Virus record (IMG/VR): IMGVR_UViG_3300028392_000041
Span: 32,001 to 96,000 of that record
DNA: 64,000 bases
DNA from: a virus
Direction: 5' to 3' (one strand)
Shown here: positions 48,992 through 54,401 of the stretch, piece after piece
Layout: each line of letters begins with the position of its first letter
How positions within the stretch are numbered: the first letter of the stretch is position 1
The notes under the pieces: model-generated
What the model saw: the letters and a program-made list of their open reading frames with translations, nothing else
What the model was told of the DNA's origin: nothing
Databases searched by the model: none
Program-made: the position numbers and the translations under genes

Positions 48992-49065
48992 TGGTTGCGG
49001 AGGGCGGAATCGAACCACCAACTGAAGCATATGAAACTTCTGAGATACCGTTTCTCTACTCCGCG
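48992..49065 (-). tRNA. tRNA-Met(CAT), initiator-like
   Basis: Cloverleaf, C1:A72 mismatch, encoded CCA. Confidence 0.85.
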
Positions 49066-49070
49066 ATTGT

Positions 49071-49343
49071 TTAATATAATTTTTCAGGTAATTGTTGAGA
49101 ACGAATCTGCTTGCGCCATCTTGCCTTTGCTCTACCCTTTGCCAACTTTCTTTGAATAGATGGTTTAAGATATTCCTGACGATCGCGAAGTTCTTGCAAT
49201 AGACCATTCGCTTCAATCTTACGCTTGAACAGACGCAGTGCTTGTTCAAATCTACCATCTTGAACTTCTACCTTACTGCCATCGTAGCGTTTCTCTCGAT
49301 GTTTACCTCTGCCGTATTCTTTTTGCCTTTGCGGTATTGTCAA
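49071..49343 (-). CDS. rpsU: Ribosomal protein bS21
   Basis: FEQALRLFKRKIE..GLLQELRDRQEYLKPS..RK, C-terminal QQLPEKLY; AGGAGA RBS before TTG. Confidence 0.9.
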   Translation of the reverse strand: MTIPQRQKEYGRGKHREKRYDGSKVEVQDGRFEQALRLFKRKIEANGLLQELRDRQEYLKPSIQRKLAKGRAKARWRKQIRSQQLPEKLY

Positions 49344-49361
49344 ACTATTCTCCTAAAATTT

Positions 49362-49437
49362 TGGTGCCCCTCGACAGATTCGAACTGCCGACCTTCGCAT
49401 TACTAATGCGCTGCTCTACCAACTGAGCCAGAGGGGC
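49362..49437 (-). tRNA. tRNA-Thr(AGT)
   Basis: Cloverleaf, anticodon loop TT-AGT-AA, CCA. Confidence 0.88.
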
Positions 49438-49448
49438 GAGTAAAGTAT

Positions 49449-50078
49449 TTATACGATTCTCATTGTGTTTATTGAACACTTAGTAAGCGCATAATTAAAA
49501 CTTAATGAAATCCTACACTCATCTGTATCTGTTGTAAATCTATCAGTACAATGTTCTAACCAACTGGGAAACAGAAGCATCAAAGCGAACTCTGGTTTGT
49601 ATTTCCATGCCCTGTATGAGATTGGGGATTCTTTTATAAAATTTCCATGCTGCATCATTTTTGCTGGTCTTGGATCTATAAAAGATATATCGCCTATATC
49701 TTTGTCAGCTGGAACATTTAAGTAAACAACACCTGATAAAAATGAATTTGGGTGTTGATGTGTTCTGTGTCCATTTCCAGTATTTCCAATTTGAGAATTA
49801 CTCCACATACAAGAAAGACTCAAAGAATTTTGTTCTAGTCCCAATGCTTCTGTTGAGAATGATTGAACTTCATTATCAATGTGTTTAACTAATTCTTTAA
49901 ATTGTGATAGTGTGTTTAGATTATCTTTGGTGCTTCCTGATAAACTTTTAGAAAGAGATTCTTTATCAAGAAGTTTTTGAACTTCTTGTTTTGCAGTTGA
50001 ACATACACTATGATCTAGATTCGAGATCCCAATAGGTGTAGCAAATAAATTATCAACTCTTCTATGCATAATATTCAA
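49449..50078 (-). CDS. 2OG-Fe(II) oxygenase (TIGR02466-like)
   Basis: HQHPNS.LSGVVY, FPSWLEH, RISLSFN. Confidence 0.88.
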   Translation of the reverse strand: MNIMHRRVDNLFATPIGISNLDHSVCSTAKQEVQKLLDKESLSKSLSGSTKDNLNTLSQFKELVKHIDNEVQSFSTEALGLEQNSLSLSCMWSNSQIGNTGNGHRTHQHPNSFLSGVVYLNVPADKDIGDISFIDPRPAKMMQHGNFIKESPISYRAWKYKPEFALMLLFPSWLEHCTDRFTTDTDECRISLSFNYALTKCSINTMRIV

Positions 50079-50224
50079 TTAGTTTAGTGCTATCGTGCCG
50101 ATTTGCCAAAAATGTAGCTAACACTGGCGAGCGAGTGGCAGTTATATCAGACAGTGTCAGTCGCACCCTAACTGTCGAGTAGTCATAGCGTCCTATGACG
50201 ATTACCTTGATAACACTAAACTAA
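50079..50224 (-). ncRNA. Candidate structured RNA A
   Basis: 16-bp closing stem with one G.U pair on the minus strand; internal hairpins; directly follows the CCA of tRNA-Gly. Confidence 0.55.
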
Positions 50225-50298
50225 TGGAGCGGGATATCAGAATCGAACTGATGACGAAAGATTGGAAATCTCTAGTTTTGCCATTAAACTAATCCCGC
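50225..50298 (-). tRNA. tRNA-Gly(TCC)
   Basis: Cloverleaf, U73, CCA. Confidence 0.92.
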
Positions 50299-50300
50299 AA

Positions 50301-50535
50301 ATGCTTCCTGTCCGTCGTGGTAATTATAGTACATCAGGATTTAGTTGGTTGTCTCTCATATCCATCACGCATACCCTCCACCCACTCGCCACGGACAGAA
50401 CTCTCGTGTTGCCAACGCTGGTTAGGTCGACCCATGATTTTACTCATGCCCTATTCAAAGGGAGAACCATCCTACTGATAGCCAATCAGTTTCTCTCATG
50501 CGGATCACATTAGCAGTGGTTAGCTGCGAGCCCAT
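50301..50535 (-). ncRNA. Candidate structured RNA B
   Basis: GC-rich non-coding segment behind its own promoter; TTCTGTCCGTGG pairs with CCACGACGGACAGGA. Confidence 0.45.
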
Positions 50536-50586
50536 ATAGTAATTATACCCGACTTATACTAAAATGTCAAATCGAATGCAATTATT

Positions 50587-50662
50587 TGGAGTAGGTGACA
50601 GGAATCGAACCTGCATTATTCAGATTTGCAATCTGCTGCCTAGCCATTCAGCGCACACCTAC
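50587..50662 (-). tRNA. tRNA-Cys(GCA)
   Basis: Cloverleaf, U73, CCA. Confidence 0.9.
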
Positions 50663-51213
50663 ATTAACCTTACTCTGCTGTGTTTAGGAACACCCGATAA
50701 CAAGTAATCCATTTGATCAGCAAGAATTTGTCTGTTTTCTAAAATCATTCTTTCGTAGTGGTTTGGTTCGTACGGAACATATAAAAGTTCCATATTTGCT
50801 TTCTCTAGTGACTTGCTACCTTTTTTGGCATTGCACTTCAAACAAGCAGTAACCACATTCATCCAGATATTCAGACCACCCTTTGAAACAGGATGAATAT
50901 GATCTCTAGACAAATGACCAGAACCATGTACATCACCGCAGTAAGCGCACATGTGTCTGTCTCTACCGAACAATGTTTTGTTTGTTAGAACAACTTTACC
51001 AATTCTTTCGATAGAGGTATTACCTTTTACGGCAATGATTGATTTAGTTTCTAGTACTGACTGTGTCCCATCGTTACGGTAGCCACCACGGTATGTCGCG
51101 ATAGTTTCACCAAGCGACCAAACAACTTGGTCTTTGGCGTGGTAACAAATTGCATCATCAAAATTTACCCATGCTCTTGGTAAACCTGATGAGTCCAGTG
51201 CTAGAACATTCAT
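50659..51213 (-). CDS. HNH endonuclease
   Basis: RD.HMCAYCG, DHIHPVSKGG, NVVTAC..CN..K. Confidence 0.9.
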   Translation of the reverse strand: MNVLALDSSGLPRAWVNFDDAICYHAKDQVVWSLGETIATYRGGYRNDGTQSVLETKSIIAVKGNTSIERIGKVVLTNKTLFGRDRHMCAYCGDVHGSGHLSRDHIHPVSKGGLNIWMNVVTACLKCNAKKGSKSLEKANMELLYVPYEPNHYERMILENRQILADQMDYLLSGVPKHSRVRLM

Positions 51214-51244
51214 ATCATTCCCTTTCTTGTTCTACTATTTAGAT

Positions 51245-51321
51245 TGGTGTCCCCCAAGGGATTCGAACCCTCATCTTATCAATTATGAGTTGACAGCATT
51301 GACCAGTTATGCTAAAGGAAC
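51245..51321 (-). tRNA. tRNA-CAT (Met or Ile2)
   Basis: Cloverleaf, loop CT-CAT-AA. Confidence 0.85.
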
Positions 51322-51323
51322 AT

Positions 51324-51400
51324 TGGTGCGGATACCGAGACTCGAACTCGGAGAACTCAGATTTTAAGTCTGATATGTATACCAATTCCATCATATCCGC
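51324..51400 (-). tRNA. tRNA-Leu(TAA), short variable loop
   Basis: Loop CT-TAA-AA, A73. Confidence 0.85.
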
Positions 51401-51405
51401 AAACT

Positions 51406-51480
51406 TGGTGCCCCGAGAGGGAATTGAACCCCCATAATGACTTTAGAAGAATCATGTCCTATCCATTGAACGATCGGGGC
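51406..51480 (-). tRNA. tRNA-Arg(TCT)
   Basis: Cloverleaf, CCA. Confidence 0.9.
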
Positions 51481-51487
51481 AATACAC

Positions 51488-51577
51488 TGGTGGAAGATCA
51501 GGGAGTCGAACCCTGTGAGCGTATTACTACACTCTACGGATTAGCAATCCGCTGCATTACCATCCTGCCCATCTTCC
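51488..51577 (-). tRNA. tRNA-Ser(GCT)
   Basis: Long variable arm, CCA. Confidence 0.9.
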
Positions 51578-51582
51578 TAACT

Positions 51583-51656
51583 TGGCATCCCAGCAGGGAC
51601 TTGAACCCCGACTAATAGTTTTGGAGACTATCGTGCTGCCATTACACTACTGAGAT
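51583..51656 (-). tRNA. tRNA-Trp(CCA)
   Basis: Cloverleaf, G73. Confidence 0.9.
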
Positions 51657-51661
51657 ATATT

Positions 51662-51735
51662 TGGTGCCCCATGACAGAATCGAACTGCCGTAACCTGATT
51701 ACAAAACAGGTGTAATACCATTATACTAATAGGGC
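51662..51735 (-). tRNA. tRNA-Thr(TGT)
   Basis: Cloverleaf, CCA. Confidence 0.9.
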
Positions 51736-51743
51736 AAAAATTT

Positions 51744-51818
51744 TGGTGGAGGATGGGAGGATCGAACTCCCACTTCATGCTTGCAAAGCACATGTGCTCC
51801 CATTATCACTAATCCCCC
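51744..51818 (-). tRNA. tRNA-Ala(TGC)
   Basis: G3.U70, CCA. Confidence 0.92.
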
Positions 51819-51824
51819 AAAACA

Positions 51825-51901
<77 letters not shown>

Positions 51902-51909
51902 AATAAAAC

Positions 51910-51984
51910 TGGCTCCGAAGGCAGGGATCGAACCTGCGACCAATTGATTAACAGTCAACTGCACTACCGCTGTGCTACTTCGGA
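51910..51984 (-). tRNA. tRNA-Asn(GTT)
   Basis: Cloverleaf, G73. Confidence 0.93.
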
Positions 51985-51990
51985 ATATAC

Positions 51991-52065
51991 TGGAGCAGGA
52001 TATCGGATTTGAACCGATGACATTTTCGTTGGCAACGAAACATTCTACCACTGAATTAATCCTGC
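51991..52065 (-). tRNA. tRNA-Gly(GCC)
   Basis: Cloverleaf, U73. Confidence 0.92.
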
Positions 52066-52074
52066 ATAAAAACT

Positions 52075-52149
52075 TGGTACCTTGTGACAGATTCGAACTG
52101 CCGACCTTCTCCGTGTAAAAGAGACATTCTACCACTGAAATAACAAGGC
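52075..52149 (-). tRNA. tRNA-Val(TAC)
   Basis: Cloverleaf, CCA. Confidence 0.9.
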
Positions 52150-52152
52150 ATT

Positions 52153-52229
52153 TGGTACCGAGGGTGGGACTCGAACCCACAAGATTTAGTTTCTAAGACT
52201 AACATGTATACCAATTCCATCACCTCGGC
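52153..52229 (-). tRNA. tRNA-Leu(TAG), short variable loop
   Basis: Loop CT-TAG-AA. Confidence 0.85.
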
Positions 52230-52237
52230 ATTAACTA

Positions 52238-52315
52238 TGGTACCCCACCCCTGATTCGAACAGGGATACCTCTTCCTTTTGAGAGAAGCGACTTTACCAA
52301 TTTGTCCAGTGGGGC
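52238..52315 (-). tRNA. tRNA-Leu(CAA), short variable loop
   Basis: Loop CT-CAA-AA. Confidence 0.85.
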
Positions 52316-52317
52316 AC

Positions 52318-52392
52318 TGGTACTCGGTGATGGTTACGATCCATCTACAGCTGCCTTATCAAGACAGTACCTCACCATTCGGTCTACCGAGT
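52318..52392 (-). tRNA. tRNA-Ile(GAT)
   Basis: Cloverleaf with atypical T-loop ATCGTAA. Confidence 0.8.
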
Positions 52393-52398
52393 ATAATA

Positions 52399-52487
52399 TG
52401 GAGGAAGGATGGTAGAATCGAACTCCATGCGCTTTCGCACACCTTCTGCTTTCAAAACAGAGTCCAGCCCAGCTGAATTAACCTTCC
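52399..52487 (-). tRNA. tRNA-Ser(TGA), non-canonical fold
   Basis: Long variable arm, extended D-stem, bulged T-stem, U73. Confidence 0.75.
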
Positions 52488-52492
52488 GTATC

Positions 52493-52567
52493 TGGTAGTG
52501 ATAGTAGGATTCGAACCTACGATAACTTGCGTATGAAGCAAGCGCATTACCACTTTGCTATATCACT
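52493..52567 (-). tRNA. tRNA-Met(CAT)
   Basis: Loop TT-CAT-AC. Confidence 0.88.
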
Positions 52568-52577
52568 AAAAACTTTT

Positions 52578-52651
52578 TGGGGTGACTAGTGGGAGTTGAA
52601 CCCACACGAAGAGAATCACAATCTCTGATGCTACCATTACATCATAGTCAC
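52578..52651 (-). tRNA. tRNA-His(GTG)
   Basis: Cloverleaf, C73. Confidence 0.9.
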
Positions 52652-52664
52652 ACCAAAAAGTTCT

Positions 52665-52738
52665 TGGTAGGGGCACAGAGAATCGAACTCTGATTTGTTG
52701 GTTAAAAGCCGACTACTTTTCCGTTAAGTTATACCCCC
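52665..52738 (-). tRNA. tRNA-Lys(TTT)
   Basis: Cloverleaf, one anticodon-stem mismatch. Confidence 0.88.
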
Positions 52739-52853
52739 GAATCTTATCTAACCTGCGCAATGCTTTGTTTGTTTTGCGATGCGCACCAGCTTTTCTAAAC
52801 AATGCCAGAACAACGAACTGGTTGCGTTGCTTGGCGATCATCTTTCGCTTCAT
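52713..52853 (-). CDS. Small basic protein (46 aa) reading into tRNA-Lys
   Basis: AGGAGA RBS; MKRKMIAKQRNQFVVLALFRKAGAHRKTNKALRRLDKIRGYNLTEK*. Confidence 0.7.
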   Translation of the reverse strand: MKRKMIAKQRNQFVVLALFRKAGAHRKTNKALRRLDKIRGYNLTEK

Positions 52854-52871
52854 CGTTCTTCTCCTAAAAAT

Positions 52872-52947
52872 TGGTACCCCATAAAGGAATCGAACCTCTA
52901 CCTCTGCGTTCGTAGCACAGTATGATTATCCATTTCACCAATGGGGC
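52872..52947 (-). tRNA. tRNA-Arg(ACG)
   Basis: Cloverleaf, CCA. Confidence 0.9.
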
Positions 52948-52953
52948 ATAATA

Positions 52954-53029
52954 TGGTACCGAGAGTAGGACTTGAACCTACCACACCTTGTGCTTCAAAC
53001 AAGTGCTCTACCAGATGAGCTACCTCGGC
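52954..53029 (-). tRNA. tRNA-Phe(GAA)
   Basis: Cloverleaf, CCA. Confidence 0.9.
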
Positions 53030-53037
53030 AAAAATTT

Positions 53038-53112
53038 TGGCGACTCGTAGGGGAATCGAACCCCTGTATCCTGTTAGACAGACAGGTATAATGACCATTA
53101 TATGAACGAGCC
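53038..53112 (-). tRNA. tRNA-Asp(GTC)
   Basis: Cloverleaf, G73. Confidence 0.9.
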
Positions 53113-53119
53113 AAAAAAC

Positions 53120-53208
53120 TGGTGGAAGTGGTAGGATTCGAACCTACAGCGTTTCTTATGTGGCGGATTTACAGTCCGTTGCCTTCAACCAATTCAGCAC
53201 ACACTTCC
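53120..53208 (-). tRNA. tRNA-Tyr(GTA)
   Basis: Long variable region, CCA. Confidence 0.9.
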
Positions 53209-53215
53209 AAAACTT

Positions 53216-53291
53216 TGGTACACCATGGGGGAATCGAACCCCTCCTTTTGTCTGTGAAAGAGACATGTCCTAACCGATAGACGAATGGTGC
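53216..53291 (-). tRNA. tRNA-Glu(TTC)
   Basis: Cloverleaf, CCA. Confidence 0.9.
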
Positions 53292-53296
53292 ATATA

Positions 53297-53533
53297 CCAA
53301 ACTAAAATACACTGGGATGATCAGCAACAACCATCACCCGATGGCTAACCACGCTGTCGTCCAGCGATTGGTCGCTTCTCACATTACATTCCAACTTTCT
53401 CCAGCGTGACCACCGTATCCGTCTTACGACTTCGTTTCCATCTTTCGTGTAATCTAGCGAGCGATACTCCGTCGAGTATCCTGAACTCCTAGATCACCTA
53501 CTGGTTTTGGTAACCCAATGTATTTTAGTTTGG
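53297..53533 (-). ncRNA. Candidate structured RNA C
   Basis: 20-bp closing stem (one G.U on the minus strand) enclosing ~200 nt of GC-rich hairpins between tRNA-Gln and tRNA-Glu. Confidence 0.6.
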
Positions 53534-53604
53534 CAGGGGTACTTGGAATCGAACCAAGAACGACGGAATCAAAATCCGTTGTGATACCACTTCACTATAC
53601 CCCA
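53531..53604 (-). tRNA. tRNA-Gln(TTG)
   Basis: Cloverleaf, G73. Confidence 0.9.
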
Positions 53605-53620
53605 ACAACTATCGCGAAAT

Positions 53621-53668
53621 TTTTAAAGAGCAGGATTGAATTATACATCGAAACGAAATATAAGTCAA
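53621..53668 (-). promoter_or_regulatory. tRNA-operon proximal promoter followed by a boxA-like element
   Basis: TTGACT(53668-63)-17-TATAAT(53645-40), then TGCTCTTTAAAA (53632-21). Confidence 0.8.
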
Positions 53669-53701
53669 TCAATAACCCTACAAATTAGTAGGGTATAAAA
53701 C

Positions 53702-53732
53702 AAAAAACCCTCGGGACTTTCATCTCCGAGGG
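53702..53732 (-). terminator. Intrinsic terminator (attenuator candidate)
   Basis: CCCTCGG-A-GAT-GAAA-GTC-CCGAGGG-TTTTTT. Confidence 0.88.
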
Positions 53733-53761
53733 TTTTGGTAAATAAATTTGTAGTCTAAGAC

Positions 53762-53887
53762 TTACTTACCAAAACCCCCTGAATCATTCTCAATCGCATA
53801 TCCTAATGATGATACTGTGCGTGAGCATGTCCAGCCACTAAACAGTGGGAGCGGATGCTTCTGCATGGATATCGATCTTAGTAACAT
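53762..53887 (-). CDS. Putative leader peptide containing all 20 amino acids
   Basis: MLLRSISMQKHPLPLFSGWTCSRTVSSLGYAIENDSGGFGK*; its 3' end is complementary to the terminator 5' arm. Confidence 0.7.
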   Translation of the reverse strand: MLLRSISMQKHPLPLFSGWTCSRTVSSLGYAIENDSGGFGK

Positions 53888-53937
53888 TTGAAAATTTATT
53901 CCTTGAAAATTTGATAAGAACCTAAGTCCTTATCGTT

Positions 53938-53977
53938 TATTTATAGTAATTATACACTCAATTTGATTAAATGTCAA
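53938..53977 (-). promoter_or_regulatory. Tandem sigma70 consensus promoter and T4 late promoter driving the leader
   Basis: TTGACA(53977-72)-17-TATAAT(53954-49); TATAAATA at 53945-38. Confidence 0.85.
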
Positions 53978-54401
53978 TCTTTTTTACATTTATTTTGCAA
54001 CTATTCAGAAAATTAATTCCGTCTTCATCACGATACGCATCACGATAATAGACTGTGTTTATTCCTGCGCCATGAACCAACTTAGCGCAATGAATACAGG
54101 GAGCATGGGTGCAGAATAGAGTACTACCATTGCCACTTTCTCCATCACGAGCCAACTTGAGTATAGCATTTGCTTCAGCATGAATAACCTCATCTTTCGT
54201 TTTCAAAACAACAGTATCATCAGACAACTGAACCACATTCTCGCATTCATTTGTCCAACCAGCTGGCATACCATTGTAACCAATCGAGATAATACGATTA
54301 TCCTTGACTACGACAGCCCCAACTTTCAATCGCTTCGCTGAAGACAACTGAGCAAATCGTTCAGCTGTATCCATGAAGGCATCAACCCACTTCTGTTTCA
54401 A
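53967..54401 (-). CDS. dCMP deaminase
   Basis: GYNG, HAEANAI, PCIHC. Confidence 0.9.
   Translation of the reverse strand: MKQKWVDAFMDTAERFAQLSSAKRLKVGAVVVKDNRIISIGYNGMPAGWTNECENVVQLSDDTVVLKTKDEVIHAEANAILKLARDGESGNGSTLFCTHAPCIHCAKLVHGAGINTVYYRDAYRDEDGINFLNSCKINVKKIDI

Follow-up and report, generated by a model that had tools for sequence, protein, structure and literature searches.

A putative leader-peptide attenuator carrying a near-complete set of amino acids precedes the tRNA array of an uncultured T4-like phage

Introduction

What governs the transcription of a complete set of tRNA genes carried by a virus, and why would a short open reading frame (ORF) containing all 20 amino acids stand between those genes and a promoter? 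Both questions are raised by a locus on the minus strand of a 64,000-nucleotide stretch of viral DNA (hereafter the window, to which all coordinates refer), which comes from an IMG/VR virus record of 111.8 kb. In classical attenuation, one or a few amino acids control the genes for their own biosynthesis. A preliminary description of the locus, made from its sequence alone, had proposed that the ORF is the leader of an attenuator of much wider scope, in which a ribosome completing the leader would mask an antiterminator strand and thereby stop transcription, and a ribosome stalled at any missing, uncharged or cleaved tRNA would allow read-through into the tRNA genes. In full-text searches of the literature, we found no description of a leader-peptide attenuator ahead of tRNA genes, nor of a leader holding all 20 amino acids. 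Here, we examine the locus and its homologues in metagenomic phages, and weigh the proposed attenuator against other explanations of the same anatomy.

Source phage and its tRNA array

The phage represented by the window encodes a T4-type baseplate, and its closest isolate, as judged by the baseplate wedge protein, was Methylophilales phage Melnitz at 41% identity; among cultured phages, no relative with the leader was found by DNA and peptide searches. The window also encodes a phage tmRNA (27134–27487, minus strand), which matched the Rfam model beta_tmRNA (139 bits; threshold 84) as well as tmRNA_permuted (123.8 bits), and which ARAGORN classified as permuted, with the tag peptide ANDSQFALAA. 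A tmRNA of betaproteobacterial type points to a betaproteobacterial host, and this uncultured T4-like phage probably infects a freshwater betaproteobacterium. A gene for ribosomal protein bS21 (49071–49343, minus strand; Pfam PF01165, 54.7 bits), with an AGGAG Shine–Dalgarno sequence and a TTG start, sits between tRNA-Thr(AGU) and the last tRNA-Met, and a promoter-like match at 49343–49316 falls within it. With its tRNA array, tmRNA and bS21, this phage invests heavily in translation.

The array itself (48992–53604, minus strand) comprises 28 tRNAs serving all 20 amino acids and opens with tRNA-Gln(UUG). ARAGORN called 27 of them; the other, tRNA-Ser(UGA) at 52403–52487 on the minus strand, has a long variable arm, a UGA anticodon loop and a cloverleaf-like fold, and matched Rfam solely through the tRNA-Sec model (40.6 bits). 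A tRNA array lay behind every homologous leader for which downstream sequence was available, nearly all opening with tRNA-Gln(UUG), and relatives with enough downstream sequence carried 26–29 tRNAs. Several unusual anticodons were seen in these arrays, namely CUA in L102 (amber-suppressor-like, called Pyl by ARAGORN), Tyr(AUA) in L107, Leu(AAG) in L192 and Ser(AGA) in several relatives.

The leader ORF and its homologues

Upstream of the array, the leader ORF (53762–53887, minus strand) consists of 41 codons and a TAA stop codon. It uses 32 distinct codons and contains 20 amino acids, all of which are already present within residues 8–35 (M8 to D35), as the preliminary description had it. That description had also pointed to rare codons near the start; codon usage in the phage bore this out for CTA (0.10) and ATA (0.15), but not for AGA, which accounts for 0.42 of Arg codons. 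No Pfam family matched the leader peptide, and its homologues in protein databases bore no functional name, being at most labelled ‘hypothetical protein’. By strict wobble, 34/41 leader codons are readable by the phage tRNAs, or 39/41 when tRNA-Ser(UGA) is counted; a special matching of leader codons to phage tRNAs was nevertheless rejected, as ordinary genes reach 83% and the measure does not discriminate.

How improbable is a complete set in so short a peptide? With the amino-acid usage of the phage, the probability of 20/20 in 41 residues is ~0.005 and that of 19 or more is 0.05, and real 41-residue windows of phage proteins hold all 20 at a frequency of 0.005. Among 111 small ORFs (32–46 codons) in the window, the leader ORF was the only one with 20 amino acids. 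The complete set emphasised in the preliminary description is weak evidence when it comes from a single window, and because 20/20 there is not rare enough alone, the significance of completeness has to be drawn from relatives.

Searching IMG/VR with the neighbouring deaminase and the terminator pattern yielded 49 non-redundant homologous leaders, and a profile search of a 5.8-billion-protein collection added 41 further clusters. The protein collection contributed 32 new peptides, with the start set at the aligned Met of the family, and a divergent clade, found solely through its hairpin and terminator, contributed 34–35-codon leaders ahead of arrays opening with tRNA-Trp. All 34 peptides obtained from these two sources, beyond the 48 aligned relatives, have 19–20 amino acids. 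Overall, the 82 distinct leaders from metagenomic phages (32–47 residues) comprise 57 with 20/20 amino acids, 25 with 19/20 and none with fewer. The amino acids absent from leaders are mostly Val, then Cys, Asp and Gln, and are not mirrored by missing tRNAs; the idea that gaps in the leader mirror gaps in the array was discarded, as Val-less leaders precede arrays carrying tRNA-Val.

Column shuffling lowered the mean number of distinct amino acids from the 19.65 observed to 18.22 ± 0.12. Of complete peptides there were 30 before shuffling but 5.2 after it, and never more than 13 in any of 5,000 shuffles. To control for ancestry, disjoint and phylogenetically independent pairs of leaders were formed and their differing columns swapped at random; if sites evolved independently, the resulting hybrids should be as rich in amino-acid types as the real sequences. 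In a first test, the observed count was 904 against 883.0 ± 3.6 (z = 5.8). With all 82 peptides and substitution columns only, z rose to 6.4 and 7.6, and none of 20,000 hybrid sets scored as high, whereas the same procedure applied as a control to the dCMP deaminase (41-column windows from the same loci) gave z between −2.9 and +1.7. Individual residues illustrate the pattern: across leaders, the single Cys is seen at five or more distinct positions, mostly after the invariant Trp, and where lost from there it turns up before the Trp, following the Leu-Pro motif or at residues 3–8; a similar shift in position is seen when Tyr or His is lost. These tests show that correlated substitutions maintain completeness to a degree that common descent does not account for, and that the amino-acid set is under selection.

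The reading frame has been preserved along with the composition. Frame 0 is open in all 48 aligned sequences (32–46 codons) and the other frames are closed, indel lengths are divisible by three, and all relatives share an aligned ATG. Diversity at codon positions 1, 2 and 3 is nearly equal (0.36, 0.32 and 0.39), and within the peptide only Met1, Leu13 and Trp19 are invariant, with Pro14, Arg23, Asp35 and Gly38 nearly so. By the evidence of these comparisons, the leader sequence is weakly constrained, its frame and composition being retained more than its sequence, and translation of the leader is inferred from the same data.

Two further features lie within the ORF. RNAalifold predicted a small hairpin (CCACU-GUUU-AGUGG; 53835–53848, minus strand) with compensatory changes in four pairs, which covaries although the encoded residues change, and which is a candidate transcription pause hairpin; its pausing role is inferred. 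In alignment A1, columns 55–72 (~53833–53816, minus strand) contain the TGG codon of the Trp and the word CACGC.CA, invariant or nearly invariant in 48 leaders, and this invariance extends to third codon positions. Such constraint at the nucleotide level could reflect a pause site or a pairing partner.

Promoter and 5′ layout of the leader

Upstream of the leader, promoter P1 (53949–53977, minus strand; TTGACA-17-TATAAT) matches the consensus at 12/12 positions, and the dCMP deaminase gene (53967–54401, minus strand; Pfam PF00383) runs into it. A promoter of this type was present in all relatives (9–12/12 matches, with a spacer of 17 nt). The sigma70 promoter of the preliminary description is in place. 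The word given there as a late promoter, TATAAATA (53938–53945, minus strand), overlaps the P1 start region and remains a possible T4-type late promoter. It was found where described, and a (T/C)TAAATA-like word is retained at this position in relatives having a 5′ untranslated region (UTR), but it is not enriched in the window (4 occurrences vs 5.5 expected). The search pattern YTAAATA did not include the window’s own TATAAATA motif.

Between P1 and the leader, the window has a 5′ UTR hairpin (GAUAAG...CUUAUC; 53913–53934, minus strand), the stem of which shows A-U to G-C exchanges in relatives having a 5′ UTR, and a Shine–Dalgarno-like AAGGA (53900–53904, minus strand) located 12 nt 5′ of the ATG, matching the long spacing that had been flagged as a caveat. 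AAGGA is kept in the 8 relatives whose 5′ UTR is long and missing from the 40 with no leader or one of 3–5 nt. This long layout, with a 5′ UTR of 36–62 nt and AAGGA, is restricted to eight relatives including the window, and a leader of 3–5 nt occurs in six. In the other 34/48, the −10 hexamer ends 6–7 nt before the ATG, so that the A of the ATG is the expected transcript start and the mRNA would be leaderless. Predicted from promoter spacing, this layout points to leaderless mRNA with a dedicated start in 34/48 relatives. A similar arrangement was observed elsewhere in the window, where a second promoter with 12/12 matches (50570–50542, minus strand) stands ahead of tRNA-Gly(UCC) (region 50455–50570). 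Its −10 hexamer ends 6 nt before the ATG (50535) of a 26-codon ORF, giving a leaderless layout like that of the relatives’ leaders; no terminator was apparent by eye.

Two mutually exclusive RNA structures

The 3′ end of the leader folds into hairpin A, the putative antiterminator (53728–53779, minus strand), a helix of 19–20 bp with a predicted free energy of −24.6 kcal/mol (z = −6.09; none of 200 shuffles was as good). Its 5′ arm contains the final five sense codons of the leader together with the stop codon. Immediately overlapping it is an intrinsic terminator (53697–53736, minus strand) comprising an A-run, CCCUCGG, a loop and CCGAGGG, with its stem at 53732–53708 and a T-run at 53707–53697. 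The 3′ arm of hairpin A ends in nine bases that double as the A-run and CCCUC of the terminator, in its 5′ arm. A simple promoter and terminator scan missed this main terminator, the loop and bulge of which fall outside the rule, and folding recovered it. Both elements of the preliminary description, a helix at the leader end (53779–53728) and its overlap with the 5′ arm of a terminator stem (53732–53708), are thus in place.

Hairpin A is present in 48/48 aligned sequences with a mean of −22.7 kcal/mol, compared with a mean of −17.7 kcal/mol for the terminator, and in combined folds hairpin A wins in most sequences, as it does in the window’s full leader. According to these folding models, formation of either structure precludes the other, and hairpin A has the greater stability. 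Covariation lends it support: pairing holds in 88.5% of cells, compensatory changes occur in five pairs, and hairpin A covariation exceeds that of all 500 shuffles, with slid controls reaching at most 57%; the covariation expected of a real helix was therefore found. Two inner stem pairs of the terminator also covary (UA/GC/AU and GC/AU/GU). The strand common to the two structures is nearly invariant, as expected of a strand that must pair with two partners. Across all 48 sequences, the stop codon lies 11–24 nt into the 5′ arm of hairpin A and 48–57 nt before the T-run. Had relatives kept the terminator and lost the composition or the complementarity, the attenuator would have been refuted; no such case was seen, and 48/48 keep the frame, a near-complete set, hairpin A and the terminator.

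Taken as a whole, the 191-nt stretch has a better fold than its shuffles (z = −3.57). Within the ORF, no strand was found that pairs with the 5′ arm of hairpin A to serve as an anti-antiterminator, and in the absence of such a strand the default state would be read-through. Three other candidate elements lacked covariation support and are not proposed here: a long-range helix between AUAUCC near the ORF start and GGAUAU before the conserved GCG, a helix of CUCACGC with GCGAUUGAG seen in the full-leader fold, and the invariant CACGC as a consensus pause signal. An Rfam scan of the region returned only a match to His_leader (RF00514) at 25.3 bits, below the gathering threshold of 49 (E = 0.59).

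This geometry limits which codons could be sensed. The conserved Asp codon begins only 6 nt upstream of hairpin A, and a codon for Glu, Asn, Tyr or Phe is frequently located within 12 nt of it; where a codon is too near, a ribosome stalled there may itself open the hairpin. Judged from these distances, some 18 amino acids on average, rather than 20, would be clearly placed for sensing.

Routes of transcription into the array

Downstream of the terminator, the window has a hairpin of the form ACCCUAC...GUAGGGU (53675–53694, minus strand) just before promoter P2 (53640–53668, minus strand; TTGACT-17-TATAAT), which lies between the terminator and the tRNAs and matches the consensus at 11/12 positions, in agreement with the second promoter noted in the preliminary description. 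In most relatives (e.g. L003, L005 and L036), a hairpin of the ACCCUAC...GUAGGGU type is located a few bases before the −35 element of the leader promoter, and these hairpins may insulate promoters from upstream transcription. A P2-like promoter occurs in 23/47 relatives including the window, of which L142 is borderline (9/12, in a gap of 46 nt). None was found in the other 24/47, where at most 49 nt separate the T-run from the first tRNA, a gap containing only a small hairpin and boxA, with no promoter above 8/12; in one relative, boxA follows the terminator directly. Without a promoter in the gap, the array of these 24 phages is reachable only by read-through, and the terminator must therefore be conditional. 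For the window and other phages with P2, which bypasses the gate, the switch only adds to a constitutive level of transcription.

An rrn-type boxA (UGCUCUUUAAAAA; 53620–53632, minus strand) precedes the first tRNA, and a boxA-like word stands in this place in most relatives; with the 27 tRNAs called by ARAGORN and tRNA-Ser(UGA), the boxA and 28 tRNAs earlier assigned to this region are complete. The boxA of rrn operons has an established role in antitermination. By analogy, its presence here suggests that the phage makes use of borrowed NusB/NusE antitermination to transcribe a long untranslated operon.

Proposed mechanism and alternative explanations

Considering these results together, we regard a ribosome-mediated leader-peptide transcription attenuator ahead of a complete tRNA array as the probable identity of this locus. 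A leader ORF between P1 and the array, an intrinsic terminator and an antiterminator hairpin sharing a strand with it are all present, as expected of an attenuator. The expected position of the stop codon in the antiterminator 5′ arm is met by geometry only, the effect of a ribosome there being inferred, and the leader codons (19–20 amino acids in 82/82 leaders) fit near-complete arrays, albeit not strictly case by case. The attenuator proposed in the preliminary description is accordingly supported by relatives that keep frame, composition, hairpin A and terminator, about half of them with no other promoter; to this observed anatomy, conservation and covariation is added the selection for a complete set.

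In the mechanism we propose, RNA polymerase would start at P1 and transcribe the 41-codon leader. Hairpin A, made first and more stable, would form as long as no ribosome occupies its 5′ arm, and transcription would read through past boxA into the tRNAs. A ribosome that completes the leader and sits on the stop codon would cover the 5′ arm, leaving the shared strand free to form the terminator, and transcription would stop. If a ribosome were instead held upstream for lack of any charged tRNA, hairpin A would remain intact and read-through would follow. A leader with all amino acids, or all but one, would in this way report the decoding capacity of the whole tRNA pool. Because enough tRNA would turn off the inducible transcription of the array, the circuit would amount to negative feedback, a gauge of the phage’s own supply. 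Translation of the leader, the effect of ribosome geometry and regulated read-through all remain inferences. We are somewhat inclined, with less assurance than for the attenuator itself, to the fuller interpretation that this is a natural all-amino-acid sensor of translation capacity, setting the transcription of a virus-encoded complete tRNA set and operating mostly on leaderless mRNA. Such a sensor could restore decoding if host tRNAs were scarce, uncharged or cut by anticodon nucleases; an anti-defence purpose is untested.

Part of the same evidence would also suit a switch that senses only overall translation, or initiation on leaderless mRNA, with the complete set arising from another cause. 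Leaderless initiation responds to the state of the translation apparatus, and 34/48 leaders look leaderless; the folds moreover imply read-through by default when no ribosome is present, and Asp, often with one more amino acid, is too near hairpin A to be sensed. What such a switch leaves unaccounted for is the presence of 19–20 amino acids in 82/82 leaders and the reappearance of single-copy residues at new positions, and we consider it unlikely. More doubtful still is the view of the ORF as nothing more than a small protein gene that has a terminator of its own and a peptide with its own function, hairpin A merely stabilising the 3′ end of the mRNA. The conserved positions of the peptide, from Met1, Leu13 and Trp19 to the nearly fixed Pro14, Arg23, Asp35 and Gly38, could be those of a functional protein, and P2 alone could serve the tRNAs in the window. 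A stronger, mutually exclusive hairpin A would, however, defeat a simple terminator, and the tRNAs have no promoter of their own in 24/47 relatives; nor does a small protein sit well with near-equal diversity at the three codon positions, with a sequence constraint that is weak next to the strong constraint on composition, or with a peptide that matches no known family.

Some of the conserved residues are also reminiscent of nascent-peptide arrest of the TnaC or SecM type, in which Trp, Arg-Pro and Asp would stall the ribosome near the stop codon in a ligand-dependent manner and so set the fold. Conserved Trp, Asp or Pro residues are a feature of known arrest peptides, and Trp19, Arg23 (commonly followed by Pro) and Asp35 are near-invariant here, with the stop codon fixed in the hairpin. 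Their spacing is unlike that of TnaC or SecM, though, many other positions vary freely, and arrest offers no account of the complete amino-acid set, leaving this explanation with very little weight. We give the least credence to a non-coding structured RNA in which the ORF is incidental, for all that the 191-nt stretch outdoes its shuffles in folding (z = −3.57), invariance reaches some third codon positions and His_leader gave a sub-threshold match (25.3 bits vs 49): the frame is open in 48/48 with indels in threes and an aligned ATG, that ATG is at the predicted +1 of a consensus promoter in 34/48, and the signal in composition exists only at the protein level.

Comparison with known regulatory systems

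The proposed attenuator resembles trpL, hisL, leuL, pheL and the multivalent leaders of thrL and ilvGMEDA in placing a short leader ORF between a promoter and the genes it controls. It also shares with attenuators of biosynthetic operons an intrinsic terminator opposed by an overlapping antiterminator, and a stop codon positioned to let the terminating ribosome mask the antiterminator strand. From the stop codon to the end of the U-run, the phage leader measures ~60–70 nt, and the corresponding distance in the trp leader is similar. Unlike those of biosynthetic operons, this leader is phage-encoded and stands before tRNA genes rather than genes for biosynthetic enzymes, and most members of its family look leaderless. 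In place of the runs of regulatory codons found in classical attenuators, each of 19–20 amino acids is represented in it by one or a few codons. This leader further differs from the trp leader in having no pairing of the 1:2 type (segment 1), so that untranslated RNA would read through.

T-box riboswitches likewise make a choice between terminator and antiterminator upstream of translation-related genes with tRNA status as the cue; they do so, however, by directly binding one specific uncharged tRNA and without a leader ORF, and no T-box model matched the region in the Rfam scan. The nearest published work concerns the long tRNA operon of Anabaena sp. PCC 7120 (trn, or L-array), described as a silent array induced by translational stress and controlled by the ribbon–helix–helix protein repressor TrcR (PMC8421152; PMC10272220). 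Like the phage array, it is an accessory and near-complete set of tRNAs, and its expression rises when translation is impaired, but it is cellular rather than viral and controlled by a protein repressor. The words leader, attenuator and terminator are absent from the 2021 paper on the Anabaena trn operon.

Conclusion

In conclusion, we propose that the phage leader represents leader-peptide attenuation that keeps the logic of trp and his while covering all amino acids and controlling tRNA genes, a proposal that is experimentally unproven. The same device would apparently have been generalised to the whole genetic code and aimed at tRNA genes, and selection on the amino-acid inventory of a peptide rather than on its sequence is unusual in itself. 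If true, the proposal would provide the first description of phage tRNA arrays under cis-acting control, as well as a compact natural gauge of overall decoding capacity, and the module of ~190 nt could double as a reporter of translation stress. The finding bears on why large phages carry complete sets of tRNAs and on how these are timed and dosed, and also on how phages might answer host defences that target tRNAs (for background, see PMC11555353 and PMC11464382).
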